Positions 97-29,673 of a DNA stretch of 32,000 bases are shown in pieces; within the stretch, counting starts at the first letter, position 1; every line of letters starts with the position of its first letter. This DNA comes from Candidatus Thalassarchaeaceae archaeon (GTDB lineage Archaea > Thermoplasmatota > Poseidoniia > Poseidoniales > Thalassarchaeaceae). Under the pieces are notes generated by a model. The model did no database searches, had not been told where the DNA came from, and was given only the letters and a program-made list of their open reading frames with translations. The DNA is taken from the NCBI GenBank assembly GCA_045568075.1, contig JBJLBP010000001.1:180001-212000 (forward strand). Direction: 5' to 3'. The position numbers and the translations under genes were made by a program.

Positions 97-203
97 TACA
101 CCTTCCGGACTCGGCCGAATTAGGGCCTGTATTTCATAGCAACGGATGGTTGAGGCCCCCGTGAGAGTGTGAATTCCTATATCTGAAGGTGGAGGGGGGT
201 TCG

Positions 204-1094
204 ATGGAGGGTGTGCTGTCAGTGGTTCCAGAAGTCGGTGCCTTCCTACTCGGGGCCCCTAAATGTGGAACCACTTGGCTTGCTGATGCATTGAGCCAAC
301 ATCCAGGTGTTTGTGTTTCTGACCCCAAGGAGCCGAATATCGTCGCGAGTCACAAAGGCACTTTTCCTCGTGACGATTCCGAACCTGATTGGGAAGCTTA
401 CTCGGGTTGCTTCTCAAGTGGTGGTGTACGTATCGATTGTTCTGTTCATGCACTGGCTTGTCCGGTTGCACCCAGTCGTGTTGCTAGGTTTTGGCCAGAG
501 GCGCGTTTGGTCGTATGTCTGCGTGAACCTGTGAGCCGTACCATCTCTCATTGGAACATGATTCTAGACACTGGCGAGGATGCTGAGTTTGGTGAAGATT
601 GGTCTAACTTCGAAGTAGCCTGGGCCGATTCTCGGTTGAATTGTGATACATTGTATGGCGCCAGTGTGACGCGCTGGTTGGAGTATTTCGGTAGAGATTC
701 TATTCTCTTGATAGAGGCTAATCGTATGCGGCACGAGCCTGTTGCTGTGTTAGCTGAAGTCTGTGCCCATTTGGGTGTTGATGAGTATGCCTTTGATCTC
801 GATGCCGTGCATAATGCAAATACGGCGGCCGACCGTCGTCCAATTACCTTCTTCGGCCGCATTTTTCGCTTTACTGCCAGCCTACTACCTGGATTTCTCA
901 AAGGCCCAATCGTAAGACGCTTGCAGGCTCGCGGCACCAATGTGTACAAGATGCCGGTGCTATCGAGCGAGGCGCCGGAGAAGCGGGTGATTTCTGATGC
1001 CCAACGAGCGCTTCTGGCAGAGCAAGTGAATGCAGATCTAACCCTACTTGAGGGTGCTACTGGATTTGATGCATCGGGCTGGCGCATCGCCTGA
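204..1094 (+). CDS. PAPS-dependent sulfotransferase family protein
   Basis: ORF 189-1094. It has a 5'-PSB type P-loop (LLGAPKCGTTWL) near the N-terminus and a 3'-PB-like CLREPVSRTISHW about 100 aa later. I prefer ATG 204 over GTG 189 because a GGAGGGGGG run (191-199) lies just upstream. Confidence 0.8.
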   Translation: MEGVLSVVPEVGAFLLGAPKCGTTWLADALSQHPGVCVSDPKEPNIVASHKGTFPRDDSEPDWEAYSGCFSSGGVRIDCSVHALACPVAPSRVARFWPEARLVVCLREPVSRTISHWNMILDTGEDAEFGEDWSNFEVAWADSRLNCDTLYGASVTRWLEYFGRDSILLIEANRMRHEPVAVLAEVCAHLGVDEYAFDLDAVHNANTAADRRPITFFGRIFRFTASLLPGFLKGPIVRRLQARGTNVYKMPVLSSEAPEKRVISDAQRALLAEQVNADLTLLEGATGFDASGWRIA

Positions 1095-2594: not shown

Positions 2595-3521
2595 TCAATG
2601 TGAGATGATTAACTCAGAGTCAATGTGGGATTCGAGGTTCGCTAGGAAATCGATTTCTTCTGCGAATGCGGCTTCTAAATCAATCCGGACTTCTTCGCTC
2701 AAAGTTGGTCTAGATGCTGCCTTGGCTTTGAATCCAGGGCGGCGCAGTGGGTCGAATATCGCCTTACGTAAACGATGGGATGGGAGTAAGATTTTGGCAA
2801 GGGTGATGAGGAATTTCGGCGGTCGGCGAAGGAATTTGGCCCAGCCGGACGGATTCATGTCGCCGCCCTCATTGTGACGAGGTAGTTTCGTATTCTCAGG
2901 TAATGGTTCCAATTCAAGCCAGGTGAGTATGTCGTTGAGAGTGGCTAGTGGATCGTTCTTGATTGAGGATAGTGGAATGATTCTGACTCGGTCGCCGAGC
3001 GATTCTGCCCACTTGATTGTGGGGTGCTTTAGTCGTGGGAATGCGAGGAAGCTCCATGTTTCTGGATCGTCGGCACTCTGCTGGAAATTTCTGGCGGCTG
3101 CCAGCTCGAGCATGTCGGCTTGGCTGACATTGTAATCGACCAGTCTTTTCGAGTGTTCTTGGTGCATACTGAGCATCAAGTCGATTGGGTTTCGGAGTGT
3201 TATGATGATGCGTGCATCTGGCATTTGGTCCCTAACTGCAGCGAAGGCGCGTTCGGAGTATACATGGAATGCTGACTTGTCTAGAATCCAAGGTTCCTCT
3301 GCATACTTGTGGAAAGTAGGTTCGGGCGCGATAATGGCTGTGCCTCTTGGATGGACTGGGGCTGTTGGAAATTCTGCCGCGCCCGCCATCAAAAAATGGC
3401 TCTCATTAGGCCATGGATGGAAGATGGAATCATGGTCACGCAGCCAATGCATCAAGGAAGTGGTGCCGGTCTTCGGGCCGCCTATTAGGAGTAAGTTTGG
3501 GGTCTGATTGTACCTGTGCAT
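2595..3521 (-). CDS. PAPS-dependent sulfotransferase family protein (second, divergent copy)
   Basis: It has a 5'-PSB loop (LLIGGPKTGTTSLMHWL) at the N-terminus and a 3'-PB-like ITLRNPIDLMLSMHQ. At 308 aa it is only distantly similar to the ORF at 204-1094. Confidence 0.8.
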   Translation of the reverse strand: MHRYNQTPNLLLIGGPKTGTTSLMHWLRDHDSIFHPWPNESHFLMAGAAEFPTAPVHPRGTAIIAPEPTFHKYAEEPWILDKSAFHVYSERAFAAVRDQMPDARIIITLRNPIDLMLSMHQEHSKRLVDYNVSQADMLELAAARNFQQSADDPETWSFLAFPRLKHPTIKWAESLGDRVRIIPLSSIKNDPLATLNDILTWLELEPLPENTKLPRHNEGGDMNPSGWAKFLRRPPKFLITLAKILLPSHRLRKAIFDPLRRPGFKAKAASRPTLSEEVRIDLEAAFAEEIDFLANLESHIDSELIISH

Positions 3522-4445: not shown

Positions 4446-5258
4446 TTAGGAATTCATTTCTCGAATGAATTCTGTCAAAACGCCTTGTAGCTCGTCCGCA
4501 TCATCGAATGATTCTGTGAGATTGCCTGTGATTATCCAGTCAGCACCAGCCTCTACAGCGCGCCTCGCCGTTTCTCCATCGCGGATTCCACCGCCAACAA
4601 TCAATGTCAGATTGCACGACGCGCGCGCGGTGCGAATTAATTCAGGGTCAACTGGAGTGTGAGCTCCGCTTCCAGCCTCGAGGTAGAGGAGTTCGAATCC
4701 GTAGGATTGGGCTGTCATAGCGTATGCTGCCGCCCTGTCGCTTTGGCTGGCCTCGACTAAGTTCGCTTCCCCGACTTCTCCTACTCGCCCGCCTGGTGAA
4801 CATACCACGTAACCCATTGGTAGCGTCTCTACGCCTGCCTCTCGGATGAATGGGGCACCAGACAACTGTTCTTCGATAAGGAATCGGGTTTTTGTGCTGT
4901 TCATCAGCATCATGAAAGTAATTCCATCGGCTGCTGGAGATAGTGCTGCAGCTCCTGCTGGGAAGAGAACTATTGGAACTCTCCACGACTCTTCGTCGAG
5001 ATCGGAATCTTGACTTGAAGCCCAGGTGATGAGTTCTAGTGCTTCTTTGATAGCGACCACTGTGTTGTGCACATTCATCATATCAGTGCCAGTTGAGCCG
5101 CCAACGAGTACCATTCTCGAGCCGGCTGAAACTGCGGCGACGCAGCGCTTAGCCGCCATCTCAGGAGTTTGGTCTGCTGGGTCGATGAGAATGGCGTGGC
5201 GAGCGCCGTTTGAGGTGTCTGCGACGTGCCTCAAAGTCGGGCCTGCCTCTCGGACCAT
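4446..5258 (-). CDS. geranylgeranylglyceryl phosphate synthase (GGGPS, PcrB family)
   Basis: Family motifs are present: VLVGGSTGTD, FELLYLEAGSGA and LIVGGGIRDGETARRAVEAGADWIITGN (TIM-barrel phosphate-binding end). The 270-aa length fits. Confidence 0.85.
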   Translation of the reverse strand: MVREAGPTLRHVADTSNGARHAILIDPADQTPEMAAKRCVAAVSAGSRMVLVGGSTGTDMMNVHNTVVAIKEALELITWASSQDSDLDEESWRVPIVLFPAGAAALSPAADGITFMMLMNSTKTRFLIEEQLSGAPFIREAGVETLPMGYVVCSPGGRVGEVGEANLVEASQSDRAAAYAMTAQSYGFELLYLEAGSGAHTPVDPELIRTARASCNLTLIVGGGIRDGETARRAVEAGADWIITGNLTESFDDADELQGVLTEFIREMNS

Positions 5259-5349
5259 GACTCTGCGTGGTGATTGGGTGTCTAAGTGTTTCAGAGATAT
5301 TGGGTCTCATAGAATGGTTGCTGCAAGCGCTCGCCCGCGCGAGATTGCA

Positions 5350-5946
5350 TCAACGAGGGCGGTTCGTGGATCTGCGCCCTTCCATTCCATGAGTTTGCAA
5401 CCACTTCCTCCCTTCATACTGATTATTTTCTTCTTCCGACCACCAGACTTCTACCAAACCATCTGATCTGCTTCCTTCGTAGGATGATGCTTTCAGATTG
5501 CCATTATGCACACCACCAAACCAAGTATTGGATTCTGTTTCTGGTGTGGTGGAAAGAAGATGGTCTACAACAAGTTCTCTTTCAGAGGTAAGACCTGCTC
5601 CTGTTAGAAACAAGCTGGTTTTTCCCCCCTCCGAATCGATAGTTGGGTGAGTCCTCAAATGTATTACTGCGCCCCTCTCTGATAGTTTACTTGCTATTGA
5701 TTTTTCAAGCCAAGAACGACGTAAAGCGCTGCTTTCAGGATTCGGTTGTTGGGACCCTAGGTGGTGATGCCACTCTCTTGAGAATAATTCTTCGAAGTGT
5801 CCATTTAACAAGCCTGGGCCTTCTCCCATTAGTCCTGTTTCTGGGCGTTCTTCGATGAGATGTAGTTCCATTTCTGGATGTTGATCAAGAAGTGTATGAG
5901 CACAGATAAGATTGGAAAGTTCTGTACCAATAATTGCTACACGCAT
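5350..5946 (-). CDS. short degenerate geranylgeranyl-reductase-like protein (N-terminal half of an FAD oxidoreductase fold, dinucleotide motif lost)
   Basis: MRVAIIGTELSNLICAHTLL...LIEERPETGLMGEGPGL aligns by eye with the GGR N-terminus (V-V-G-G-G-P-G-G ... IEKRPEIG..CGEGL). GxGxxG is replaced by GTELSN and the Cys by Met. ATG 5946 lies 2 nt after the ferredoxin stop (TGAGAATG). Confidence 0.4.
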   Translation of the reverse strand: MRVAIIGTELSNLICAHTLLDQHPEMELHLIEERPETGLMGEGPGLLNGHFEELFSREWHHHLGSQQPNPESSALRRSWLEKSIASKLSERGAVIHLRTHPTIDSEGGKTSLFLTGAGLTSERELVVDHLLSTTPETESNTWFGGVHNGNLKASSYEGSRSDGLVEVWWSEEENNQYEGRKWLQTHGMEGRRSTNRPR

Positions 5947-5948
5947 TC

Positions 5949-6206
5949 TCAAGCAACTCCGATAGGGGTGGTTGCTCCTTTTGCTGATTCAAAGAGGAGG
6001 GCGTGGACCGGGCATGCGGGAATACAAAGTTCACAATGTGTGCAGGTTGGCTCGTCGATAATCACTAGAAGTCCAGACAAATCTAACGCATCGACTGGGC
6101 AGATCGCTACGCAAGCTGCACAACCAAAACACCTCCCTTCATTGAGGGCGAGGATTTCTCCTGGACGTTTCGCCATTGGTTGTTCGGAGAGGATAGGGGT
6201 TCTCAA
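5949..6206 (-). CDS. 2x[4Fe-4S] ferredoxin
   Basis: Two CxxCxxCxxxCP clusters are present: CFGCAACVAICPVDAL and CTHCELCIPACPVHAL. The protein is 85 aa. Confidence 0.8.
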   Translation of the reverse strand: MRTPILSEQPMAKRPGEILALNEGRCFGCAACVAICPVDALDLSGLLVIIDEPTCTHCELCIPACPVHALLFESAKGATTPIGVA

Positions 6207-13740: not shown

Positions 13741-16722
13741 TTGGCTGGAATAAGTAAGAACGGCGTAGCCGAAGACGGCTGGATAGTTGTCAAGGGCGCG
13801 CGAACCCACAATCTTCGTGATATTGACGTGAAGATTCCACGTGGTAAATTCGTAGTCATATCCGGGGTCTCCGGTAGTGGCAAATCTAGCCTCGCATTCG
13901 ACACTCTGTACGCTGAGGGACAGCGTCGTTACGTCGAATCCCTCTCATCCTACGCGCGGCAATTCCTCGGCCAGATGAAAAAGCCGGACTGCGATAGCAT
14001 CGAAGGCCTCTCACCAGCCATCAGTATTGACCAGAAACAAGGTAGCCACAATCCTCGTTCAACAGTTGCGACAGTCACTGAAATCATGGATTACCTCCGT
14101 CTACTGTGGGCGCGAGTAGGGCTTCCACACTGCCCAGAATGCGGTAAGGAAGTTGCACGAAGAACAGTCCAGGAAATTGTCGACGACGTGCTCTGGCGCT
14201 TCGAGGGACACGCAATCGCCATCTGGTCACCTACAATCCGTGCTCGCAAGGGCACCCACGCAGACCTGTTCAGGGCACTAGTCGAACAGGGCTATCTTCA
14301 CGGCAGAGTCAATGGCCGAGAAGCGGAATTCGATGAACCACCAATTCTCGAAAAGAATTTGAGGCACGACATCGATGTCAGAATCGATCGCTTACGTCTA
14401 TCTCGCACAGCAAAACAACGCCTTACTGAAGCAGTCGCCGAAGGCATGCGACTTGGTGGCGGAGCAGTAGCAATTGAGAGCCTTGAAGCCCCAGTGGCCG
14501 AGAAAGGAGAGGACGCAAAAGCCCAGAGATTCCAGACTCAAATCGGCCAAACCATTGCTTACACCGAAGAGTTCGCTTGCCCAGAGCACGGTTCCTTCCT
14601 CCCTGAAGTAAGCCCTCGTGTGTTTTCATTCAACAACCCACTCGGAGCTTGTCCCGCGTGCCAAGGGTTGGGGATTCAACGAGAATTCTCCAACGACCTT
14701 GTCATCGATCGTCTCGCTACAGTTGAGGAGGGCTGTATACGACCATTCCGCAGTTCGATGATGTCAGGCTGGTATCGAAAGCAGATGACACAGGTATGCC
14801 AGCACTATGGAATACCATCTAACATTCCATTTGGAAATCTCGACGAGGATTCGAAAGACGTTCTTCTCTATGGCACAGGAAGCACTGCAATTAATTTCGA
14901 ATTTACTTCAGAGAAAGGCTCAGCCTACCAAATGACACGTCCTTGGGAAGGCGTCTTCGCGCGCATCCGTCGCACATACACTGACACCACCTCTGACCGC
15001 ACACGATCCCGCCTTGCATCCTACATGACTGATGAGCACTGCCCCGATTGCAATGGTCGCAAACTCAACCGTGCTGTAAGTGGGGTGACGGTTGGAGGAG
15101 TGACTCTACCCGCTTTCTCAGCATGCAGCGTTATCGAGGCGCTGGCGGTAGTGCAGAATTGGCGCCTCGGCACAACAGACGACACTTGGTCACGTCTCGA
15201 GCGCGATATCCCCACAACACAAATCGTCGAAATAACCGAACACCTCGACGAGCGAAGCCTATTCATTGGTAGCGAGGTAATCAAAGAAATCGAGGCTAGA
15301 CTGCGTTTCCTCGCACTCGTGGGTCTCGATTATCTAACACTCGATCGCCGTGCAAACACACTTTCGGGCGGGGAATCGCAACGCATCCGCCTAGCGACTC
15401 AGATTGGAACGCGCTTGACGGGAGTCATGTACGTCCTCGACGAACCCTCGATTGGCTTACACCCAAGAGACAACAACCGCCTCCTCGAGACTCTCCGAGA
15501 ACTCACAGAGCTTGGCAACACTCTACTCGTCGTCGAGCACGATGAGGCTACTCTGCGCCAGGCGGATTGGCTCGTCGACATGGGAATTGGTGCCGGCAGA
15601 GATGGAGGCGAGGTAGTAGCAAATGGGGATATCGACACTCTACTCACATCCAAAGACAGTATCACAGCAGCTTACCTTTCAGGCCGCAGCGAAATCCCAC
15701 TACCAGAAGACCCAGTAACTCCTGACGAGGATCGCTGGCTTACAATTCGCGGTGCCCGACAAAACAATCTGCGCGATCTCGACGTTGACATACCACTAGG
15801 TTGTATGATAGCAGTCACAGGAGTTTCAGGTTCAGGAAAATCATCACTCATCACAGAAACCTTGGCTCCGGCCTTACTCCGCGAATTACACGGTGCCGAC
15901 ACGACTCCAGGAAGCCACGACCGCATTGAAGGAATCGAACAAATTGACAAGACGATCGTCATTGACCAATCTCCCATTGGCCGTACCCCTCGTTCTAACG
16001 CTGCGACATATACGGGAGCATTCACGCCAATTCGAACTCTGCTGTCAGAGACCAAGCTCGCCCGTGAACGCGGTTACCAGCCAGGGCACTTCTCCTTCAA
16101 CGTCAAGGGAGGGCGATGCGAAGCCTGCAAGGGAGCCGGCTCGATGAAGCTGGAAATGAATTTCTTACCCGACGTCTGGGTCACTTGCGACATCTGCAAA
16201 GGCAAACGCTACACTCGAGAAACACTCGAGGTCAAATGGCGCGGAAAAACAGTCCATGACATCCTTGAAATGCCAGTTGAAGAGGCGAATGATTTCTTCA
16301 AAAATCAGCGCAGCATCCATCGAATACTTTCGACGTTGAAGGACGTTGGACTGGGATATATTCGCCTCGGTCAGCCAGCAACGACCCTCTCGGGCGGGGA
16401 GGCCCAGCGGGTGAAATTGGCAACGGAATTACACCGTCCCGCCCGCAAACACACAGTGTATATTCTCGATGAACCGACTACAGGATTGGCGATGTCCGAT
16501 GTCCACCAACTCATCGAAGTTCTTCTGAGATTGCGACGTAATGGCCACACGGTGATCATCATTGAACACCACCTCGACGTAGTCAAGTGCGCCGATTGGG
16601 TGCTTGATCTCGGCCCTGAAGGTGGAGAGCATGGTGGCGACATTGTCGCAGAGGGCACTCCCAAGGAAGTCGCAAGCAACAAGCACAGTTACACCGGCAA
16701 GCATCTGGAACCACTACTCTAG
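13741..16722 (+). CDS. uvrA: excinuclease ABC subunit A
   Basis: IVVKGARTHNLRDIDVKIPRGKFVVISGVSGSGKSSLAFDTLYAEGQRRYVESLS is present. There are two ABC modules (LSGGESQRIRLA, LSGGEAQRVKLA) and zinc-finger cysteines (CPECG, CPDCNG, CEACKG...CDICKG). The protein is 993 aa. Confidence 0.95.
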   Translation: MAGISKNGVAEDGWIVVKGARTHNLRDIDVKIPRGKFVVISGVSGSGKSSLAFDTLYAEGQRRYVESLSSYARQFLGQMKKPDCDSIEGLSPAISIDQKQGSHNPRSTVATVTEIMDYLRLLWARVGLPHCPECGKEVARRTVQEIVDDVLWRFEGHAIAIWSPTIRARKGTHADLFRALVEQGYLHGRVNGREAEFDEPPILEKNLRHDIDVRIDRLRLSRTAKQRLTEAVAEGMRLGGGAVAIESLEAPVAEKGEDAKAQRFQTQIGQTIAYTEEFACPEHGSFLPEVSPRVFSFNNPLGACPACQGLGIQREFSNDLVIDRLATVEEGCIRPFRSSMMSGWYRKQMTQVCQHYGIPSNIPFGNLDEDSKDVLLYGTGSTAINFEFTSEKGSAYQMTRPWEGVFARIRRTYTDTTSDRTRSRLASYMTDEHCPDCNGRKLNRAVSGVTVGGVTLPAFSACSVIEALAVVQNWRLGTTDDTWSRLERDIPTTQIVEITEHLDERSLFIGSEVIKEIEARLRFLALVGLDYLTLDRRANTLSGGESQRIRLATQIGTRLTGVMYVLDEPSIGLHPRDNNRLLETLRELTELGNTLLVVEHDEATLRQADWLVDMGIGAGRDGGEVVANGDIDTLLTSKDSITAAYLSGRSEIPLPEDPVTPDEDRWLTIRGARQNNLRDLDVDIPLGCMIAVTGVSGSGKSSLITETLAPALLRELHGADTTPGSHDRIEGIEQIDKTIVIDQSPIGRTPRSNAATYTGAFTPIRTLLSETKLARERGYQPGHFSFNVKGGRCEACKGAGSMKLEMNFLPDVWVTCDICKGKRYTRETLEVKWRGKTVHDILEMPVEEANDFFKNQRSIHRILSTLKDVGLGYIRLGQPATTLSGGEAQRVKLATELHRPARKHTVYILDEPTTGLAMSDVHQLIEVLLRLRRNGHTVIIIEHHLDVVKCADWVLDLGPEGGEHGGDIVAEGTPKEVASNKHSYTGKHLEPLL

Positions 16723-16783
16723 CCGACTAGTCAAAGAAAACCCCCCAATCAGACTAAACCAAAGTATTCCCCGTGGACACAGT

Positions 16784-19700
16784 ATGACAACCAGTAAACA
16801 GGGTATTAATCGAAAAATTTCGATATTGATTTCTGTATTATTGCTTCAAAGTGTTGCGATGACCATCAACGCAAGTAACGATGGCTTTTCCGGCGAATCA
16901 CATTTCTCCCATCCACCAGATGAGGTAGACCTGACGCCTTGGACGATAGATTGCTATGACGATTTCGAGGCAATATGGATATGGCAAAGCGATGATTTAC
17001 CCGCTGGAATAGACCCCCCGGCGGACTCAAACTTTGGTTTCTCAGATCGCTTCGGTGTAGGCATTACTGACTTGGAAGATGGAACATTTGAACTCGAGAG
17101 CTCAACCGGCGACACCGAAATATGGGATGGATGGACCAACGGGACCACTATCCAGATTCCAGACATTTCAAACCTCAGTCGAACCTATGCTTGTTATGCC
17201 GAGGAATTCCAATGGGACGATGACACTTGGAAATTCAATCACAATAGCACATGCGAAAACGAATACTTCCTTGATGTGGACAATACCTTTGCCGTGTTCG
17301 ATTACGTATTCTGGCATGACTATCTTTCCCAGTACTACCATTGGTCATCTAACTGGGAAGAGCTTGATGATGGCACAATCAACAATTATGTGGCAAACTC
17401 CTATTTCGCGGTCGATGATTCCCCCTACATCGGGAATATGACCGACAACGCAGGAATGACTCAAATCGTCGACATTCGCCTTCGAGATATACAAACCGAA
17501 TTCGACTACGACAATCACTATGCTGAGGACTTGCATAATAAGACTCAGAAGGCGATCGGTGGAATGGCCGCCGGAAGCGATGTAATTTCATATGAGACTC
17601 ATCTGATGGACCTATCACAGGTCAACTGGGTCTCTCTGTCTGGGAAAGGCACATTATCCGACCTTGCAAGCCCACCGGACATCAGTATCGATGAAGATAT
17701 TGAATGGCGAATCTCGCTCTGCGAGGTTTACAACTACGTATTTTATCTAGAGACCTCGAGAGATATATTCGGCTTTAGGTGGGTCGCCTTCGATCCCGAT
17801 TTCGTTCAGGAAGAAAACGAAGAAGAATCTCTTACGGCCGAGTCCCGCGAATTCTCCAATTGGGCCCTAGATTGTGAAAATGAATTTCCTTTCGATTTCG
17901 TTTGGATGGCGGCTTCCTATGGTGGTGAATTCACCCCTCCTGGTCTAGAGCCGATTAATCAGTCTCATCAAAGTACGTTCTACTACAACAACAATGGGAT
18001 CGGGATCACACTTCTTCCAAATGGAACATATCAGGTCGATGTGATAGGATGGAATGGCGATTTCAACACCCAATACTGGACAGCAAACTCGAGCATGCCA
18101 GCGTTCGAAATACCCACCCTTGAAACATTCAACCTACAGCTCCCCTGTTACTACCACCAATTCGGGAATTCACTGGGTTCGTTCAGTCCTCGCCATGGGA
18201 GCTGTAATGAGAATGTCCTGATCGACCTAAGCAATCCTGCTGGAGTGATTGACCATTACTATGACAACTCGCAAACATATTGGTGGCCGTTTAGCAGTTG
18301 GATCAACCATTACCTCTGGAGCAATGGCTCTGCTTGGAACGGGGACATGCTCGTGGAGAACAAGATTAGCATAATCTCAACCAACTCAAGCGTTCAGAGA
18401 AACAGCGATGGACAGCAAGATTGGTCTACTTACCAAACCGTTCTAACTATCGAGGAATTGAATGTCGGTAGCGCCAACCTCCAATACATCACCAATTCAC
18501 ACGATGGTTCGATCAGGTATATCCAAGGCATAGATACGATCGGTGACCTCGACCAAGTGCCCGACATTACACTGCCCGAGAATTACAATTGGAGGATCAC
18601 ACTATGCAGGCTAGCCGCATCAGTGGGGATTTACGACGCGCCATTTTCCATTGACGCATTTAGGTGGGTGGCCCTCCCCGAGCCCCCGGTAATCGAGATG
18701 ATCCCGGGATGCACCGACCACTTCGCCAACAACTTCGATGTCATTGCAAACGAAGACGACGGCTCGTGCGACTACGACCTCGATGACGACGGTGTCCTAG
18801 ATGCCGACGAGGTTGCAGGGTGCACCGATCCCACAGCCAACAACCACCGTACCACTGCGACGGAGGAGGATGGCTCGTGCGACTACGACCTCGATGACGA
18901 CGGCGTCCTGGATGCCGACGAGGTTGCAGGGTGCACCGATCCCACCGCCAATAACCACCACTGGTGGAGTCCTGCGACGGACGAGGACGGCTCGTGCGAC
19001 TACGACCTCGATGACGACGGGGTGCTGGATGCATTCGATCTGTGTCCATTGGCCGATGCTGGAAAAGTAGTTGATGAAAACGGCTGTTCTGCATCTCAGA
19101 GAGACGCAGATGGAGATGGCGTGTCGGATGAGTCCGACCAATGCTCCGGAACAGAATACGATGAGCAGGCGGACGGAAATGGCTGCGGCTCCAGTCAGCG
19201 CGATTCTGATTTTGATGGATACACTGACTCTGAAGACCAATGCCCAGAAACTCCACAGGACGAGGGTGTGGATCGGGATGGCTGCGGCCCCAGCCAGAGA
19301 GATACAGATTCAGACGGTCTGATGGATTCAGAAGACCCATGCCCAGAAACGTTTGGCTCAGTAGGCGGATGTCCAGCAATCACTATTGAACTCGAATTAC
19401 TGAATGAGATGACTGCGCCGGGAATGGCTAGTATTGCCATGACTCTGACTTGTGAGAGCGGCTGTAAGACCTCGATAAACGTCGACGGCAAGGAATATGG
19501 CCGTCTTGCTGAAGGTACTCATCTACTGATGGTAGCGGTCGACGACGGCCAGACCGTCATCGTCAACGGATCTTTCGGCATCTCATTCCTAATCGAGGAA
19601 TTGACGATCACATTCTCAACATCGGACGAGGAGGTGGTATTGTTAGATGAGTTGGAGCCCAACGAAGAACCAGCAGAATTAGCAGAAAATACACTCTCCA

Positions 19701-20407
19701 CCTTCATTGTAGGAAATGCACAACCAATAACTATGCTGGCATTTACGTCAATCATGGGTGCTGCCTTCGTTCAAGCAGAGTCCCTCAGATACCCCTTCTC
19801 GAAGAGATTCTGGTGGGGAATGGCATTCATGATTGGAGCTACTCGAAAAGACCATCGTGGAGAATTCCAAAGGGGCAGAATCATCGGAGTCCTGACAACC
19901 AATCAGGGAATCCACCTTTCTGCTTTGATTCGAATCCTCGGACTGGGGAACCATCAAGCAGCCCACCATCTAAGCGTTCTAGAAGAGCAGGGGAAAATTT
20001 GGCACCATAGGGTCGGAAGGGAAATCAGATTCTTCACATCAGATGTCCCGAAAGGAATGAAGACCGCTGATTTGCCAAATATTGACATCTCCATAAATGA
20101 GAACTCAGTACCATATCGAATTTTGGTGATACTCTATGAAAACCAGGATGCCCGGGGCTATGATTTTACCCAGAAGGAGTTAGCCTCCACGCTAAACTCT
20201 AGCAAGCAATTGGTCTCATACCACGTCAGGATATTGGAAGAGAGAGGATTCATCGAGAGGCAGAGGAGCGGGTTGGGATATCGGGTAGCAATTACTATCC
20301 AAGGGGTCCGCCATATTCTTGACGACAAGCACTCAGAGGGTAGTCAGATAGGTATTGACCAATCTATATTATTCGATTCGATCATGAATCTAAATGTCGA
20401 GAATTAG
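16784..20407 (+). CDS. 1207-aa secreted/membrane-anchored multidomain protein: signal peptide, two duplicated unknown modules, Ca-binding-type repeats, one TM helix, two C-terminal winged-helix domains
   Basis: I set the start at ATG 16784 because the ORF-track start at 16604 overlaps the uvrA 3' end. The N-terminus MTTSKQGINRKISILISVLLLQSVAMTINA looks like a Sec signal. There are many N-x-S/T sequons. The hydrophobic span TFIVGNAQPITMLAFTSIMGAAFV lies at ~19700-19775 and is followed by an R/K-rich segment. wHTH-like units lie at ~19871-20035 and ~20108-20305. Confidence 0.8.
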   Translation: MTTSKQGINRKISILISVLLLQSVAMTINASNDGFSGESHFSHPPDEVDLTPWTIDCYDDFEAIWIWQSDDLPAGIDPPADSNFGFSDRFGVGITDLEDGTFELESSTGDTEIWDGWTNGTTIQIPDISNLSRTYACYAEEFQWDDDTWKFNHNSTCENEYFLDVDNTFAVFDYVFWHDYLSQYYHWSSNWEELDDGTINNYVANSYFAVDDSPYIGNMTDNAGMTQIVDIRLRDIQTEFDYDNHYAEDLHNKTQKAIGGMAAGSDVISYETHLMDLSQVNWVSLSGKGTLSDLASPPDISIDEDIEWRISLCEVYNYVFYLETSRDIFGFRWVAFDPDFVQEENEEESLTAESREFSNWALDCENEFPFDFVWMAASYGGEFTPPGLEPINQSHQSTFYYNNNGIGITLLPNGTYQVDVIGWNGDFNTQYWTANSSMPAFEIPTLETFNLQLPCYYHQFGNSLGSFSPRHGSCNENVLIDLSNPAGVIDHYYDNSQTYWWPFSSWINHYLWSNGSAWNGDMLVENKISIISTNSSVQRNSDGQQDWSTYQTVLTIEELNVGSANLQYITNSHDGSIRYIQGIDTIGDLDQVPDITLPENYNWRITLCRLAASVGIYDAPFSIDAFRWVALPEPPVIEMIPGCTDHFANNFDVIANEDDGSCDYDLDDDGVLDADEVAGCTDPTANNHRTTATEEDGSCDYDLDDDGVLDADEVAGCTDPTANNHHWWSPATDEDGSCDYDLDDDGVLDAFDLCPLADAGKVVDENGCSASQRDADGDGVSDESDQCSGTEYDEQADGNGCGSSQRDSDFDGYTDSEDQCPETPQDEGVDRDGCGPSQRDTDSDGLMDSEDPCPETFGSVGGCPAITIELELLNEMTAPGMASIAMTLTCESGCKTSINVDGKEYGRLAEGTHLLMVAVDDGQTVIVNGSFGISFLIEELTITFSTSDEEVVLLDELEPNEEPAELAENTLSTFIVGNAQPITMLAFTSIMGAAFVQAESLRYPFSKRFWWGMAFMIGATRKDHRGEFQRGRIIGVLTTNQGIHLSALIRILGLGNHQAAHHLSVLEEQGKIWHHRVGREIRFFTSDVPKGMKTADLPNIDISINENSVPYRILVILYENQDARGYDFTQKELASTLNSSKQLVSYHVRILEERGFIERQRSGLGYRVAITIQGVRHILDDKHSEGSQIGIDQSILFDSIMNLNVEN
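18707..19042 (+). repeat. in-frame tandem repeat, three units of 111/111/~114 nt, inside the large CDS
   Basis: The GG(A/G)TGCACCGA unit starts recur at 18707, 18818 and 18929 (period 111). The GGCTCGTGCGACTACGACCTCGATGACGACGG core recurs at 18761, 18872 and 18989. Units 2 and 3 differ at only about 5 of 90 shared positions. Each unit encodes GCTDPxANN...DGSCDYDLDDDGVLDADEVA. Confidence 0.85.
19073..19350 (+). repeat. three thrombospondin-type-3-like calcium-binding repeats (protein-level repeats)
   Basis: SQRDADGDGVSDESDQC, SQRDSDFDGYTDSEDQCP and SQRDTDSDGLMDSEDPCP each follow the D-x-D-x-D-G-x-x-D-x-x-D-x-C(P) pattern. Confidence 0.6.
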
Positions 20408-20435: not shown

Positions 20436-20548
20436 CATCTACCCCACCCTCACGCCCTCAACCGCAAACATCTGAAACCACTACTCTAGTCGAAATTTTC
20501 GATTTTCCGCGATGAACCTTTTGAGGGTCCTAGTTTGAGGCACCTCTA

Positions 20549-21332: not shown

Positions 21333-21968
21333 GTGCAACTCGATTTAATCCTCGGACTCGCTGTTGCAGGAGCAACACTCGGAGTAGTCGAGGGAATCAA
21401 GCCCGGACCGTTGCTGACGATGGTAATTCGCGAGACTCTTTCCGGGGGTCTTCGCGCAGGCCTGTGGACTGCGGCGGCTCCGATATTTACCGATGGCCCC
21501 CTTGTTATCGTCAGTCTATTCGCCGCCGCTTGGTTTGCGACTAATCCGCTCGCGTTATTGCTCATTTCTACCCTCGGTGCCGCGTTTCTGTTCAAGATGG
21601 GCCTCGAATGCTTCGGCATCGATCCACCTACTTACGACGAAGATGCCCCCCTTCCGACGGGCTCTTTTAGACGCGGCGTAATCACCAATCTTCTGAACCC
21701 GCATGTGTATGTGTTCTGGTTCCTCATCGGTGGCCCTCTCATGGCTTCCGCTGCCGCCACCGAACCTCTAGCACCGATTGCCTACGCGCTAACCTTCCTC
21801 TTCACCATCATGCTGGTCAAGGCGATTATTGCCTACGCATTCGACCGCGCACGCGGACAATTCTCTGAGCGCGGTTACAGAGCAGCACTCAGTGTATGCG
21901 GCGTGCTGATGTTAGGATTCGCCGTAGGCTATGCCTACCAAGCTTGGAGTCTATTCACTCAACTTTGA
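21333..21968 (+). CDS. LysE/RhtB family amino-acid efflux translocator
   Basis: It has a GTG start and is 211 aa with about 6 hydrophobic helices. The N-terminal GIKPGPLLTMVIRETLSGGLRAGL and the central NLLNPHVYVFW match LysE-family motifs. Confidence 0.7.
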   Translation: MQLDLILGLAVAGATLGVVEGIKPGPLLTMVIRETLSGGLRAGLWTAAAPIFTDGPLVIVSLFAAAWFATNPLALLLISTLGAAFLFKMGLECFGIDPPTYDEDAPLPTGSFRRGVITNLLNPHVYVFWFLIGGPLMASAAATEPLAPIAYALTFLFTIMLVKAIIAYAFDRARGQFSERGYRAALSVCGVLMLGFAVGYAYQAWSLFTQL

Positions 21969-23494
21969 GCAGTCGAATTGCCACCGCTTGGGTCACTGAT
22001 CAATGTCGATGGACCCCCTAGTGGCATTTCAGGGAGAGGAGCAAGTGGGCCGCGAAGACTCGGGCCAATAGCAATGGTTCCGAAGATTCCCTCATCGACG
22101 ATATTGTGCGATAGTCCAAACCACGGCCTTCCGTGTTGGTCGACTAGAATGTCGATGAAATCACCAAATCCACCACACCTATTGTAACCACAGTCAGCGG
22201 TTGTGTCCAATGGGTCTCCAAATTCATTCAACTGAACTGTTGTGATTAACGGATTATCCGAGAACGCATCAGTGATAATTGAGATGTAACCATTCCAAGT
22301 ATTGTTGCCGGAATCTCCCAAGTAGGCGAGAGCAACTCTCCCCTCTCCTCCTGCAGAGATAGCAGGGAAACCAGTTCCTACGAGGTTAGTAGGTGGAGCA
22401 ACCATCAACGGGTCTGACCAAGAGTCTCCTTCATCTCTGGAGAATGAGTAGTAAGGCATGTTATCGATTCCCATCCACATTGCATGCAAATTATTTTCCT
22501 CATCGGGGTGAACTTGAGCTTCCTCAAAGTTCCAAGTATCTGCAGTGCCAGTTGTTTCTGTGGGCAGTGGATGTTCCGTCCAAGTCAAGCCCCCATCCCG
22601 AGTTCGATAAATTGAGTATCCTTCACCATCACACCCTGGATTCCCACGATACAAATTCCCATCATTTGCACCAATCATGTGACCAGTTAACCCCCCACTG
22701 TTGCAGTTTAGAGGTGTTCCCGGGACCTGCTGCGTCCAAGTCAGGCCGCCGTCAAAACTGGAAGAGCAGAGAGGCGATTGCCAATTCCCGTTGATACAGA
22801 ATACCCATGTTGTTGGGTGTAGCGGAGCCGGATAGGGAGCGGAAGCAATTGTCTGGTGATCTTGTATAGAAGTCCCAGTAGCTACTGTCGGCGGACTCCA
22901 ACTCTGCCCTTCATTATCTGACCATTCGACAGTCATTCCCAGCAAAGCGTGCATATCGAACTTCATTATTCGGTCAGTCCATGGATCGACGTAGACATAG
23001 GGGTCATTCGAATTCGCCACAGGAACGGTAGGCGGATTGTAGACATCCATACAATCATACTCAACATTACCAATCATCCCAATTAGTCCGGAACAGCGAA
23101 CAATCGCAGTCGATCCACTTTCTCCATTACCCCAACTAGTGACAAACAGATTGTCGGCAGAAGTGATTCCAATAGTTGGCTCAAAGGTAGACATCCCAAT
23201 GCCATAGTAGGTACCTAGAGCACAAACGGGCGCATTGTCGCCGACTAATACATCAGTTCCATTGAAAATGCTCGAAGTGGTAGTTGCATCGGTCGCATTC
23301 GCGTAATGATACCAAACATTGCTCGCAATACCTTCTGGACAGAGTGTGTCGAATACATTCTCAGGCTCCTCCAGAGGCTCCTCTCCTCCACCGAAGCAGC
23401 CCGAGAGCATTGGAGCCAACATCAGCAGCACGACTGCTGCGGTGGCACTGCGCATATTCCGCCGTCTTCGACTTGATACATCAGATGCTCGCAT
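21959..23494 (-). CDS. secreted lipobox BNR/Asp-box repeat beta-propeller protein (sialidase-like fold), paralog 1
   Basis: The signal ends in the lipobox LAPMLSGCFGG. The Asp-boxes are SDNEGQSWS, SFDGGLTWT, TRDGGLTWT and SRDEGDSWS. ATG 23455 (MRSATAAVVLL...) is an alternative start that aligns better with paralog 2. The 3' end overlaps the convergent LysE gene by 10 nt. Confidence 0.75.
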   Translation of the reverse strand: MRASDVSSRRRRNMRSATAAVVLLMLAPMLSGCFGGGEEPLEEPENVFDTLCPEGIASNVWYHYANATDATTTSSIFNGTDVLVGDNAPVCALGTYYGIGMSTFEPTIGITSADNLFVTSWGNGESGSTAIVRCSGLIGMIGNVEYDCMDVYNPPTVPVANSNDPYVYVDPWTDRIMKFDMHALLGMTVEWSDNEGQSWSPPTVATGTSIQDHQTIASAPYPAPLHPTTWVFCINGNWQSPLCSSSFDGGLTWTQQVPGTPLNCNSGGLTGHMIGANDGNLYRGNPGCDGEGYSIYRTRDGGLTWTEHPLPTETTGTADTWNFEEAQVHPDEENNLHAMWMGIDNMPYYSFSRDEGDSWSDPLMVAPPTNLVGTGFPAISAGGEGRVALAYLGDSGNNTWNGYISIITDAFSDNPLITTVQLNEFGDPLDTTADCGYNRCGGFGDFIDILVDQHGRPWFGLSHNIVDEGIFGTIAIGPSLRGPLAPLPEMPLGGPSTLISDPSGGNSTAQS

Positions 23495-23496
23495 TC

Positions 23497-25035
23497 TTAC
23501 ATCTTCAATGTCGAGGAGCCACCAGCAGGTAAATCGGGCAACTGAACGAGTTCTCCGTAAAGTGCCGGCCCAGTCATCAAAGTTCCAATTACAGCCTCTT
23601 CAGTCCCGGCCGCATTATGCGCCAGCGCAATCCAAGGCCGCCCTTCATCGTCCAGTTCGACATCGATGAAATCACCAAATCCACCACACCTTACATTACC
23701 ACAATCCGAGGTAATATCCAAGGCGTCCTCGGGCATATTGACGACAACGCTCGTGATTAGAGGATTCTCCGCGAAGGCATCAGTCATCACAGCCATGTAT
23801 CCACCCCATCCGCAAGTTGAGGAATTATCCTCAGTGGTGTTATTCCCTCCTCCTTCACAATCGTTGACTTCGCCGATGTAGCCGATTACTACACGCCCTT
23901 CATCTCCTGCAAAAATCGTCGGGAAGCCAGTCTCAGTGACACCAGGCGCGGCCACCATCATAGGTTGCGACCAAGTCATACCTTGATCCCGAGAGTAAGC
24001 ATACCAAGGCATCTGGTCGACCGAAATCCAGGTCGCGTGAACCGCCCCACCCTCATCGACAGCAACCGCTACCTCGTGAGCATGCCACCCCTGCTGCATC
24101 CCCACTTCGGTTGTTATCGTGTGCTCGCTCCACGTGTAGCCCCCATCATGAGAGGCGTACACCGCAGGCCCTTCGCAGGAGGGATTCCCTCGGTATATCG
24201 ACCCATCAGACCCTCCGGCGACGTGCCCATGAAGCCCAGAGCACTGATTCCCAAAGCTCTCTGTTGGGTAACCAAACTGCTGAGCGTCCCACGTATGTCC
24301 TCCATCCAATGATCTGGAACACTGTGCACCTGCTGCTGGTGAACCGGTGTTGATACAGTAGACGTAGACAACTTCACCCACGATGGCATTAGGGTGCGGC
24401 ATCGAGGCTATGCTTTGGTGATCTTGTGGCACTGCATATCCATGTGTTGGAAAAGGAGTGCTCCATGTTTCTCCATCATTGTTTGAATATTCGACATTAA
24501 TTACTGCTAGAGCGTGCATATCAAATTTGACTAAACGGTCAGTGAATTTGTCGACATAAATGTAAGGATCATTCGAATTCTGGGTTTGACCAGATCCCCC
24601 ATCTCCTCCTCCTAAGAACGGCCCGACATCCTCCCACGTCTGCCCTTGATCGCGCGAGCGGATTATGTGAGTGCCATCTCCCAGCCCATTCCAATTAGTG
24701 AAGAAAATCGCGCCCGAACCAGTCACTCCAATGGTCGGTTCGAAAGTGTCGAACCCCGTTCCGTAATACGTTCCTTGGGTGAAGAACGGGGTGCTTCCAT
24801 CAGTAAGGTTCTGTGTGATATTTGCCGCAGCGACTGCTGCGGAGTCTGTTGCATCGATGGCGCCGGGTGATCCGACGGTGCCTGGATAGTGATACCAAGT
24901 GGTAGTTGGGATTGCGCCTTGGTCGAAGACAAACGGCCCTTCGGGTTCAGGTTCAGGAGCATCATCTCCGCCGAAGCAGCCGCTTATTGCGGGTGCGATG
25001 AGTAAGAGGGTGAGTAGCAGCGCGACGCTCCGCAT
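23497..25035 (-). CDS. secreted lipobox BNR/Asp-box repeat beta-propeller protein (sialidase-like fold), paralog 2
   Basis: The N-terminus is MRSVALLLTLLLIAPAISGCFGG. Five Asp-boxes are present: SRDQGQTWE, SNNDGETWS, SLDGGHTWD, SHDGGYTWS and SRDQGMTWS. It is collinear with paralog 1 (DPYIYVDKFTDRLVKFDMHAL, RCGGFGDFID). Its stop lies 2 nt from the paralog 1 start. Confidence 0.75.
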   Translation of the reverse strand: MRSVALLLTLLLIAPAISGCFGGDDAPEPEPEGPFVFDQGAIPTTTWYHYPGTVGSPGAIDATDSAAVAAANITQNLTDGSTPFFTQGTYYGTGFDTFEPTIGVTGSGAIFFTNWNGLGDGTHIIRSRDQGQTWEDVGPFLGGGDGGSGQTQNSNDPYIYVDKFTDRLVKFDMHALAVINVEYSNNDGETWSTPFPTHGYAVPQDHQSIASMPHPNAIVGEVVYVYCINTGSPAAGAQCSRSLDGGHTWDAQQFGYPTESFGNQCSGLHGHVAGGSDGSIYRGNPSCEGPAVYASHDGGYTWSEHTITTEVGMQQGWHAHEVAVAVDEGGAVHATWISVDQMPWYAYSRDQGMTWSQPMMVAAPGVTETGFPTIFAGDEGRVVIGYIGEVNDCEGGGNNTTEDNSSTCGWGGYMAVMTDAFAENPLITSVVVNMPEDALDITSDCGNVRCGGFGDFIDVELDDEGRPWIALAHNAAGTEEAVIGTLMTGPALYGELVQLPDLPAGGSSTLKM

Positions 25036-28155: not shown

Positions 28156-29673
28156 TTATTCGAGCCACAATCCGATGGAAGCATCCCACGCTTGGTAGGA
28201 CACACAGTTTGCATCAGCAGAGTAGACCATGAAGTAAGTAGAGTCCTCATGCGTGGAGGAACTGAATGAAAGATCGATATCAAACCAGCCGTTTGAATTC
28301 GAATAGTAACACCAGTAGTTCCACTGCCCTGCGCTAATGTCGTATTGTCCGACCCCAACCCTTCCCGATGGCCCGTAAGTCCAACCTTGTAGGGCGTAAG
28401 CCGTATCCAATTGCGCTACAGAACAAGGGATATCTGAATCCAACAAGATTCCAAACGAGAGGAATAGATCTTCTTCACACATCGAAGTAGTATGGTTAAC
28501 TCCCTGCCCACTTTGAGTATTATTCGATACCACCGAAGCGCCCCAAAAAGCGACTCCATTGGTCAAAGAAGATAACTCATTGAATCTAACTGGCATCGAC
28601 TGCCCGTAGATGTCTTTTACTTCGAAGTGAAGATGAGGGCCTGTACTCCAACCAGTGTTTCCAGAGAGGGCAATAGGCTCGCCTTGATGGACAATATCGC
28701 CAACATCGAGCAAGACTCCATTGTAAGTGAGATGTGCGTACATCCCGAAAGTAGAATCTCCATGGTCGATGATCACGTAGTTTGATTGATTTACACAATC
28801 CGATGAAGGACAACCTCCTGTGTGATGTTCTACAACCTCAATTACAACGCCAGGTAATGCCGCAGTGATTGTTGTATTTTCATTAACAGGAAAATCCACA
28901 GCGTAGAGCATTATTCCATTATGGCTGTAATACCCATGAAAACTCTGAGTAATATTGGCGACAAATCCGACCTCAAATGGAATACTTACCCAAACAATCC
29001 CACCCGATCGGCAGACTCCGTTATCCTCGTATGTACTGTCATCACATTCAAGCTGAGAGTTTTGTAATTCGGAAATTTCCTCCTCCAAATCCTCAACACT
29101 TTCTTCCAATTCTCCTACACGCTCGTAATAATAATCTCTAGTCGCTTCAAGATTTGAAATAATCACGTCGTAAGTGATAATTTGGTTCTGTAACTCAAGA
29201 ATTGTTGAATTGAGTGATTCTGCGAGACTTCTCAACTCCTGTATATTCTCTCTCGCTTCGGCCGAATCTTCTTCCAACCTCTCCAATTCCTCTTCTAATC
29301 CTGATAAATTGACTTGCGCGATAACTAATTCTTCTGTCAGAGTCTGAACCTCTCCTAGAGCTTGAGAATACTGTTCTCCCAACACTTGCAATTCATCCCT
29401 GAGGGTAGAAATATTACCATTCAATACTGTAATTTCTTCATTCAAATTGGAGATAGTTGTCTGAAGAGCAGGAACTTGGTCGGCCAACTCTTGCAATTCT
29501 GATACTATTTCTTCCAGACTCTCTATAGTATCTTCAGACTCATTTAATCTCAGATTCAAGTCGGAAATTTCCTCATCTTTGTAGTCCGTATTTGGAACCG
29601 AATTTTCTTCTCCAGAGCAGCCCGCAAACGATGCGGCCACTAGGAGCAGGACGATGAAGGACGCTCTGCGCAC
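28156..29673 (-). CDS. lipobox-anchored peptidase M23 (LytM/lysostaphin family) with a long N-terminal coiled coil and an unknown C-terminal domain
   Basis: The signal and lipobox read MRRASFIVLLLVAASFAGCSGEE. About 175 aa of heptad-rich sequence follow (nt ~29043-29571). The M23 catalytic motifs are VIIDHGDSTFGMYAHL and SGNTGWSTGPHLHFEV. The last ~130 aa are W/Y/C-rich and match no family I recognise. Confidence 0.8.
   Translation of the reverse strand: MRRASFIVLLLVAASFAGCSGEENSVPNTDYKDEEISDLNLRLNESEDTIESLEEIVSELQELADQVPALQTTISNLNEEITVLNGNISTLRDELQVLGEQYSQALGEVQTLTEELVIAQVNLSGLEEELERLEEDSAEARENIQELRSLAESLNSTILELQNQIITYDVIISNLEATRDYYYERVGELEESVEDLEEEISELQNSQLECDDSTYEDNGVCRSGGIVWVSIPFEVGFVANITQSFHGYYSHNGIMLYAVDFPVNENTTITAALPGVVIEVVEHHTGGCPSSDCVNQSNYVIIDHGDSTFGMYAHLTYNGVLLDVGDIVHQGEPIALSGNTGWSTGPHLHFEVKDIYGQSMPVRFNELSSLTNGVAFWGASVVSNNTQSGQGVNHTTSMCEEDLFLSFGILLDSDIPCSVAQLDTAYALQGWTYGPSGRVGVGQYDISAGQWNYWCYYSNSNGWFDIDLSFSSSTHEDSTYFMVYSADANCVSYQAWDASIGLWLE

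Follow-up and report, generated by a model that had tools for sequence, protein, structure and literature searches.

What does an archaeal gene encode when an adhesin-sized extracellular part and a pair of DNA-binding-type domains appear to share one reading frame, and what might such a product do? The question is raised by a gene at positions 16784-20407 (+) of a 32,000-nucleotide (nt) stretch of DNA from Candidatus Thalassarchaeaceae archaeon (assembly GCA_045568075.1, contig JBJLBP010000001.1, positions 180,001 to 212,000 of the forward strand), which is referred to as the window throughout. An earlier note, made from the letters of this stretch, had described the product as a giant extracellular protein joined through one transmembrane (TM) helix to two cytoplasmic winged helix-turn-helix (wHTH) domains, and had proposed it as a membrane-tethered sensor and DNA-binding protein. 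We found that its product is a membrane protein of type I, single-pass topology, with a large ectodomain, one TM helix and two cytoplasmic winged-helix domains. Judging from its sequence, we put the probability that this protein is a type I, single-pass, one-component transmembrane transcription regulator at about 0.5.

A continuous reading frame joins the ectodomain to the winged helices

The open reading frame listing of the window contains a single uninterrupted plus-strand frame at 16604..20407, in which ATG 16784 opens a product of 1207 amino acids (aa). This ATG was taken as the sensible start; it is located 62 nt past the stop of the upstream gene uvrA (13741..16722) and agrees with the N-termini of all full-length homologues. 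The earlier note had pointed out that a stop or frameshift between the ectodomain and the wHTH part would turn the two into separate genes. The frame is continuous across that region, the full fusion is retained in 12 relatives (61-98% identity, 1000-1208 aa), and it was found in independent assemblies from several samples, all of which support the view that ectodomain and wHTH domains form one gene.

The C-terminal part is a tandem winged-helix module

The region beyond the membrane segment is divided as follows.

19859..20038 (+): winged helix 1 (wHTH-1), residues 1026-1085, HVO_0163-N / ArsR-like; placed by PF24266, NF033788 and AlphaFold2 (AF2)
20039..20107 (+): acidic linker between the two domains, residues 1086-1108, L-P conserved; from alignment A2, charge -2, low predicted local distance difference test (pLDDT) score
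20108..20293 (+): winged helix 2 (wHTH-2), residues 1109-1170, MarR_2 / HTH_20 / ArsR-like; placed by Pfam, a PDB profile and Foldseek
20294..20407 (+): acidic C-terminal tail, residues 1171-1207, with the amphipathic motif ILFDSIMN, then the stop; alignment A2 columns ~280-295, charge -4

Residues 1029-1088 match PF24266 (HTH_HVO_0163_N) with an E-value of 8e-10 and scores of 33.8 bits in the whole protein and 39.1 bits as a fragment, the cut-off being 31. The NCBIfam ArsR/SmtB model NF033788 was also matched (E 3.7e-12), but with 45.9 bits it stays under its 55-bit cut-off and covers the helix-turn-helix (HTH) core alone; full membership of the ArsR/SmtB metalloregulators was accordingly rejected. 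When wHTH-1 alone was compared with PDB sequences, no significant match was obtained, the best regulator being Phr/ArsR 2p4w at E 0.046. The second domain is matched over residues 1111-1163 by MarR_2 (36.9 bits against a cut-off of 27, E 7.5e-11), HTH_20 (E 5.7e-10), MarR and HTH_24, each above its gathering score. MarR_2 and MarR cover the HTH core alone (profile positions 8-56 of 61), and the N- and C-terminal dimerisation helices that flank this core in the ~140-aa unit of MarR-type proteins are replaced here by wHTH-1 and the acidic tail. A PDB profile search recovered the DNA-binding domain of Thermoplasma RbkR (E 5.5e-5) as well as ArsR-family proteins.

From an alignment of 21 rows, AF2 produced a model of residues 962-1207 that has a mean pLDDT of 75.8, with values of 86-94 in both domain cores. 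In the numbering of this fragment (q), it consists of a TM helix q3-36, the loop E38-S-L-R-Y-P, a helix at 43-78 and HTH-plus-wing units at 65-124 and 148-209. Within wHTH-1, helices 84-91 and 95-107 precede a wing with strands in 111-124 (pLDDT 86-94), and the tail forms a helix q211-227 before confidence becomes low. Foldseek against the PDB returned MarR, ArsR and RbkR-type DNA-binding regulators among its matches, some of them DNA-bound; RbkR with its cognate DNA (5trd) aligned at 28% identity and a root-mean-square deviation of 2.4 A over 83 columns. Few positions of the module are conserved as strongly as its ArsR-style recognition helices (NxQAAHHL and SxQLVSYH). Both winged-helix units read by the earlier note therefore exist by Pfam gathering score and by confident predicted cores, and the profile, AF2 and Foldseek results together place the last ~200 aa in the ArsR/MarR winged-helix clan.

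The tail motif ILFDSIMN is conserved inside the Poseidoniales subfamily, where relatives carry LFNSLMN, LYDSLLG or VFDQLIS, and could be a docking site for a partner protein. A role in a defence system was considered and rejected: the PADLOC matches are to the generic wHTH of Csa3 and CasR alone and come without a defence-system signature.

A single predicted membrane span places the winged helices in the cytoplasm

Three segments bear on the predicted orientation of the protein.

16784..16873 (+): Sec-type signal peptide, residues 1-30, a K/R-rich n-region followed by a hydrophobic core
19700..19771 (+): transmembrane helix TFIVGNAQPITMLAFTSIMGAAFV, residues 973-996; from the translation, alignment with the strong TM helices of relatives and AF2 helix q3-36
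19778..19858 (+): basic juxtamembrane segment, residues 999-1025, with the E-x-x-R-Y-P loop, the FWWGMAFMIGA patch and TRKDHR

The signal peptide has a core at residues 12-30 with a Kyte-Doolittle (KD) value of 1.95 and K/R in front, is kept in homologues, and belongs to a pattern of N-terminal hydrophobic segments seen alike in 112 family representatives. Residues 973-996 align with unambiguous TM helices of relatives (family mean KD 2.18, 112 representatives), and in the same representatives the distance from the TM helix to the conserved RGR motif downstream of it is almost constant at ~32 residues (range 16-41). Both the Sec-type signal and the single span claimed in the earlier note were thus confirmed. 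Beyond the membrane, the juxtamembrane consensus reads E-x-x-R-[YWF]-P-x3-[RK][RK]-[FW]-W, followed by a hydrophobic stretch and G-x-T-[RK]-K; E38 hardly varies, and conservation extends to R, P, W, G and K (alignments A1 and A2).

Charge and cysteine distribution agree on the orientation. Net charges are -3 ahead of the TM helix, +4 in the juxtamembrane segment, +3 in wHTH-1, -2 in the linker, +2 in wHTH-2 and -4 in the tail, and the family means are +2.5 for the juxtamembrane segment, +3.9 for wHTH-1 and +3.0 for wHTH-2. Lysines and arginines are more numerous after the TM helix than before it in 76 of the 112 representatives, with 25 ties. All 24 Cys of the protein lie within residues 57-894 and none beyond; the C-terminal 313 residues are Cys-free and net basic, and the C-terminal 207 aa slightly basic. 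Across the family, Cys density is 1.37 per 100 aa in the ectodomain versus 0.55 per 100 aa in the C-terminal part, and Cys numbers are even for 66 of the 76 ectodomains. Because of these statistics, the wHTH pair is predicted to be cytoplasmic and the ectodomain to lie outside, an orientation that homology also supports and that bears out the positive-inside argument of the earlier note.

Were the FWWGMAFMIGA patch, which follows 12 residues past a TM helix that is itself weak, to form a second span, the wHTH pair would end up outside the cell; alternatively, the fusion might be an assembly or frameshift artefact. We regard this whole set of objections as highly improbable. The patch consists of only 11 hydrophobic residues and has basic flanks on both sides (KR before, RK-x-x-R after), and in the AF2 model it begins a single helix, q43-q78, that continues into helix 1 of wHTH-1. 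An outside position of the wHTH pair also fits poorly with a C-terminal part that is Cys-free and net basic when the ectodomain holds all 24 Cys, and an artefact is at odds with the recurrence of the fusion in independent assemblies from several samples. The patch is best read as an interfacial or re-entrant start of the juxtamembrane helix, rather than a second span. The earlier note was right that it is too short for a second TM helix, but it is part of a family-wide conserved motif and no chance feature. None of the outcomes that the earlier note had named as fatal to its claim was observed.

The ectodomain contains a duplicated module on a repeat stalk of variable length

The mature extracellular part of ~940 aa is acidic, with a net charge of -159, and is built from the following segments.

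16874..17818 (+): ectodomain module A, residues 31-345, beta-rich and unclassified, 4 Cys invariant, paralogous to module B
17819..18703 (+): ectodomain module B, residues 346-640, second copy of module A, recognised by internal similarity and invariant Cys
18704..19423 (+): Ca-binding-type repeat stalk, residues 641-880, three 37-aa repeats and three thrombospondin-type-3-like repeats, Cys-bracketed
19424..19699 (+): membrane-proximal segment, residues 881-945 (last Cys 894), then acidic linker 946-972; from the translation
18707-19032 of the window, 5149-5517 of locus L006 and 5898-6082 of locus L007: variable repeat region of 111-nt units

Residues ~90-337 match residues ~405-631 at 26% identity (E 2e-13), and each copy of the module retains the four invariant cysteines C27, C107, C127 and C283 (numbering of alignment A6). 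Profile searches with modules A and B returned no matching Pfam or NCBIfam model, and AF2 of module A, based on a 10-row alignment of modules A and B, gave an unusable model with a mean pLDDT of 34.9. Six D-x-D-x-D-G-x-x-D-x-x-[DE] motifs were found in the ectodomain, three of them inside the 37-aa units, which are encoded by a tandem repeat of period 111 nt at 18758-19032 that also appears as repeat families D1 and D2. On the stalk, Pfam TSP_3 remained below its cut-off (E 0.019, 15.1 bits versus 25), and NF047638 (throspo3_MtsC) reached E 4e-9, yet scored far under its equivalog cut-off. The membrane-proximal segment 881-945 had no family match in the Pfam search, and the last ~20 residues ahead of the TM helix carry a net charge of -6.

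What the earlier note had said of the ectodomain held in part. The cysteines, all of them in the ectodomain, and the Ca-binding-type repeats were confirmed, but the sequence is not full of N-x-S/T sequons, since the 11 present compare with 9.0 +/- 2.7 in shuffles (p about 0.29), and the internal duplication had been missed. The copy number of the 111-nt (37-aa) repeat varies among close homologues (1000, 1037, 1112, 1150 and 1207 aa), making the stalk length-polymorphic, and the length differences between relatives come largely from it.

One conserved module is joined to many different ectodomains

A word-indexed homologue search with the C-terminal fragment gave few matches (3 and 28), and we therefore compared the last 246 aa with 1.84 billion cluster representatives in an exhaustive HMMER search, which yielded 822 representatives at E<=1e-3, of which 79 reach E<=1e-10. 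The matching region is almost always found at the extreme C-terminus of proteins 200-1412 aa long. According to hydropathy, nearly all members share one plan, in which an N-terminal signal segment is followed by a variable ectodomain of 100-1200 aa, one TM helix and the tandem wHTH. PF24266 was matched in 58 of the 58 long members tested. The ectodomains of these 58 proteins contain BsuPI (15 members), FlgD_ig (5), CARDB (4), Beta_helix / NosD, Big_9, TSP_3 and NPCBM_assoc (3 each) and CarboxypepD_reg (2); sensor domains of the PAS, Cache or CHASE type were found in none of the 58. The family is thus marked by a highly conserved cytoplasmic module, in contrast to the extreme diversity of the ectodomains.

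Members that carry genome or database labels come from Poseidoniales (Thalassarchaeaceae, Poseidonia) and other Thermoplasmata, and a locus search with the narrower alignment A3 found 5 loci, all from Poseidoniales. Automatic annotation has labelled members as 'ArsR family', 'MarR family' or 'winged helix-turn-helix transcriptional regulator'. The architecture is conserved in orthologues and in a large family, and it is not rare, given 822 representatives; members already bear ArsR and MarR labels in databases.

For the paralogues P0016 (616 aa) and P0096 (1020 aa) alike, the longest contig is listed as 1,680,751 bp, and P0096 is found on a 1,680,534-bp scaffold of the same sampling project; one genome probably carries several members of the tandem-wHTH family. 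Variable positions of the recognition helices differ between the two, which is what one would expect of regulators that act on different targets. Around P0096 (locus L012, 406-5959 and 11405-15063) lie several large genes (572-784 aa) without a Pfam match, one of them with weak TSP_3 repeats, which suggests a surface-protein-rich region.

Gene regulator, released factor or structural anchor

The reading of the protein as a one-component transcription regulator is based on the ArsR-type recognition helices present in both domains, the basic character of these domains compared with the acidic rest, the DNA-binding activity of solved relatives, and a paralogy that comes with recognition-helix variation. 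On these grounds the family probably links extracellular events directly to gene control; The sequence analysis shows that the fusion is continuous and conserved and supports its topology and winged-helix fold; DNA binding, the identity of any signal, the coupling mechanism and the target genes are what we infer. After signal-peptide cleavage, the mature ectodomain would be displayed on the cell exterior as a disulfide-bonded, calcium-binding structure with two novel beta-rich modules atop the repeat stalk, where it might bind a particle, a polymer or another cell surface. The TM helix and the basic juxtamembrane helix would hold the tandem wHTH against the inner membrane face, and the two wHTHs of one chain could act as the two subunits of an ArsR or MarR dimer do and bind DNA at the membrane. 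Between the TM helix and the wHTH module lie only ~32 residues, and Pfam and NCBIfam searches found no signalling domain there. Since no such domain intervenes, coupling would have to use clustering, motion of the continuous TM-juxtamembrane-helix-1 element, or proteolytic release.

Several observations weigh against this interpretation. The predicted template modelling (pTM) score of the AF2 model is 0.40, so that the relative orientation of the two wHTHs is unreliable and the pseudo-dimer is not established. The top Foldseek matches include the tandem winged helices of TFIIIC, ScpB, ESCRT-II and RPC62, and tandem winged helices are also used for protein-protein binding. The TM helix 973-996 is weakly hydrophobic (19-residue KD ~1.2). 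The domains recognised in family ectodomains are beta domains of the adhesin or surface type, without classical ligand-sensor domains. For this reason a sensor role is something we infer, and the earlier proposal of an adhesin-scale module tied to DNA-binding domains stands for its architecture and topology and less so for the word sensor. The neighbourhood of the gene is not conserved and suggests no target operon, and literature searches on HVO_0163, archaeal membrane-bound wHTH regulators and Poseidoniales regulators turned up no characterised family member.

Part of this evidence would fit a structural surface protein or adhesin whose tandem wHTH anchors it to the nucleoid by non-specific binding, or to a cytoplasmic partner, without gene-specific regulation. 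The adhesin-like domain content of the family ectodomains, the stalk repeat-number polymorphism (1000-1208 aa among close homologues), the relocation of the gene between close lineages with a direct repeat bracketing the window copy, the protein-binding tandem winged helices (ScpB, ESCRT-II) among the top Foldseek matches and the high conservation of the cytoplasmic module despite ectodomain diversity all point in this direction. Such an anchor is nevertheless somewhat unlikely in our view, since a recognition-helix signature of ArsR type is found in both winged-helix domains, each of them net basic, the closest solved relatives by sequence are DNA-binding regulators, and the paralogues differ at recognition-helix positions. 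The earlier note had also considered regulated intramembrane proteolysis that releases a soluble regulator. In such a scheme, with a logic like that of Notch, ATF6 or RsiW, the protein would be held inactive in the membrane as a precursor, and ligand binding or ectodomain shedding would trigger cleavage in or close to the TM helix and set free a soluble tandem-wHTH regulator of ~200 aa. Type I topology, an ectodomain of large size and the short, constant distance to the DNA-binding module are consistent with this mechanism, as are the helix-destabilising N, Q, P and G in the outer half of the weak TM helix, a Pro at the TM start that recurs family-wide, and the conserved E-x-x-R-[YWF]-P loop directly past the TM helix. 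Moreover, a presenilin/SPP-type gene (PF06550) lies ~3.5 kb upstream of P0016 (L010 1339-2484, L011 1357-2484); it is, however, parted from P0016 by a seryl-tRNA synthetase and other unrelated housekeeping genes, and the linkage is not seen at other loci and may be coincidental. The nearby site-2 or rhomboid protease for which the earlier note had advised a search was not found: neither the 32-kb window nor the orthologous loci contain a site-2, rhomboid or presenilin-type protease. Most family TM helices are ordinary and strongly hydrophobic (mean KD 2.18). We consider proteolytic release an unlikely mode of action.

Comparison with known membrane-bound and soluble regulators

Transmembrane transcription regulators (TTRs) form a catalogued class (Demey et al. 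2023), present in 367 of 404 archaeal species at ~4 per genome, with single-pass forms being the commonest (PMC10269533). This census lists HTH_20, HTH_24, MarR_2 and HTH_5 among TTR DNA-binding domains, and the part of its supplementary text that was searched makes no mention of Poseidoniales (PMC10269533). The protein described here has a predicted DNA-binding domain and a predicted TM region, which together define a TTR operationally (PMC10269533), and its module consists of PF24266 above the gathering score, then a second wHTH.

Like the TTRs ToxR, TcpP and CadC, and like ArnR and ArnR1 of Sulfolobus, it combines a DNA-binding domain, a TM anchor and an extracytoplasmic part in one polypeptide. 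ToxR and CadC have an N-terminal DNA-binding domain and lack a cleaved signal peptide. Unlike ToxR, CadC and ArnR, the present protein has a signal peptide, type I topology and its DNA-binding module at the extreme C-terminus; it further differs from ToxR and CadC in having a tandem ArsR/MarR-type wHTH, not a single OmpR-type domain, and a much larger, adhesin-like ectodomain. In ArnR and ArnR1, the archaeal examples that have been characterised, the HTH is found in the N-terminal region (PMC13286277). The earlier comparison with ToxR/CadC-like logic in inverted orientation was a fair one, the DNA-binding module being C-terminal here. Membership of the ToxR/CadC-like receptors themselves, whose plan is an N-terminal cytoplasmic OmpR-type (Trans_reg_C) domain, one TM helix and a C-terminal sensor in the periplasm, was rejected: the Pfam search found no Trans_reg_C match in the module or the protein even at E<=10, the domain order is reversed and a signal peptide is present.

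ChiS and TfoS of Vibrio cholerae and the Bacteroides hybrid two-component regulators have an N-terminal extracytoplasmic sensor and a C-terminal cytoplasmic DNA-binding domain that works from the membrane (PMC10269533). In these proteins, kinase, receiver or other signalling domains lie between the membrane and the DNA-binding domain, whereas only ~32 residues do so here. HVO_0163 of Haloferax volcanii is described as a transcription factor of the ArsR type whose level goes up under hypochlorite stress (PMC10294847). Likeness to it consists in the match of wHTH-1 to PF24266, the Pfam family named after HVO_0163; an ectodomain fusion is not reported for HVO_0163. With soluble ArsR/SmtB and MarR regulators (RbkR of Thermoplasma acidophilum, 3cta/5trd; MepR; AF1382) the module shares the winged-helix fold and the recognition-helix signature. 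These soluble regulators are homodimers with dimerisation helices and ligand or metal sites, in contrast to two wHTHs in one membrane-tethered chain, and, with regard to ArsR/SmtB metal sites of the alpha3 or alpha5 type, the cytoplasmic part is Cys-free. Notch, ATF6 and SREBP belong to a class of type I receptors or precursors that are released by intramembrane proteolysis. By analogy, this class resembles our protein in its repeat-rich, Ca-binding, disulfide-containing ectodomain, one TM helix and cytoplasmic transcription-related domain, but there is no homology and no linked protease in the window. Taken together, the family differs from these systems in its type I signal-peptide topology, its C-terminal tandem ArsR/MarR module, the lack of an intermediate domain and its adhesin-scale ectodomain.

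The gene occupies different chromosomal sites in close lineages

The following features flank the gene.

16692..16726 (+): left copy of a 35-nt imperfect direct repeat, in the last codons and stop of uvrA; repeat family D3
16731..16783 (+): conserved 5' flank (L006 3183-3238), nearly identical in L006 despite TFB upstream instead of uvrA
20459..20493 (+): right copy of the 35-nt imperfect direct repeat, 86% identical to 16692-16726

A copy of 98% identity shares the arrangement of uvrA, the gene itself and BaxI_1, and in orthologues of 69-85% identity the flanking genes are TFB and ribonucleotide reductase (L006, L007 and L008 versus L009). A conserved neighbourhood was therefore rejected, the window copy lying between uvrA and BaxI_1 and the orthologues between TFB and ribonucleotide reductase. 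The ~55 nt ahead of the ATG travel with the gene; this 5' flank would comprise the gene's own predicted promoter and leader, and the gene appears to have moved together with this putative promoter region. In the window, the 35-nt direct repeat brackets the whole gene, its left copy being the 3' end of uvrA, which suggests insertion downstream of uvrA with duplication of a target sequence. The repeat is not present at the other (TFB/ribonucleotide reductase) location. It looks as if a self-contained gene had been relocated, as is typical of genes for flexible surface proteins.

The remainder of the window is an ordinary archaeal chromosome that includes PcrB/GGGP synthase, MoeA, uvrA, BaxI_1, LysE, BNR proteins, an epimerase and others. 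Two adjacent paralogous BNR/Asp-box proteins of ~511 aa with sialidase-like beta-propellers are encoded at 21959-23494 and 23497-25035 (-), the first with an N-terminal hydrophobic segment, and are probably secreted or surface glycan-binding proteins or hydrolases. A 505-aa protein at 28156-29673 (-) has a long coiled coil and a Peptidase_M23 domain, a domain whose normal substrate is bacterial peptidoglycan and which one would not expect in an archaeon. Sulfotransferase-family genes at 189-1094 (+) and 2595-3521 (-), with an inositol-monophosphatase-family gene between them, may form a small sulfation-related cluster.

Implications for Poseidoniales and their relatives

Marine Group II archaea are abundant and uncultured, and the present family offers a testable way into the study of their signalling. 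The class of membrane-bound regulators is already catalogued and members of the present family are annotated automatically; the family itself is uncharacterised. It comprises at least 822 sequence clusters in which the tandem-wHTH module is invariant and the surface domains joined to it vary greatly. Owing to its small size, the soluble C-terminal fragment would suit electrophoretic mobility shift assays (EMSA) or DNA affinity purification sequencing (DAP-seq) on environmental DNA, which would make targets accessible without culturing. Should the module be a non-transcriptional anchor, it would show that archaea link their envelope physically to the nucleoid or to a partner in the cytoplasm.

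If, on the other hand, the module regulates transcription, it would offer a simple and directly testable path from the cell surface to gene control, and the TTR concept would come to cover a type I topology that depends on a signal peptide and has a pseudo-dimeric DNA-binding module built in. A bolder and at present speculative extension, which we consider unlikely, is that Poseidoniales and related Thermoplasmata use a family of type I receptor-transcription factors, in which contact with particles, polymers or other cells would be signalled straight to the chromosome by adhesin-like ectodomains that are interchangeable, either through release of the tandem wHTH by an intramembrane protease, as an archaeal counterpart of Notch or ATF6, or by engaging the chromosome at the membrane. 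Were it true, such receptor-transcription factors would represent a main signalling mode of the most abundant planktonic Euryarchaeota, which are poor in two-component systems.

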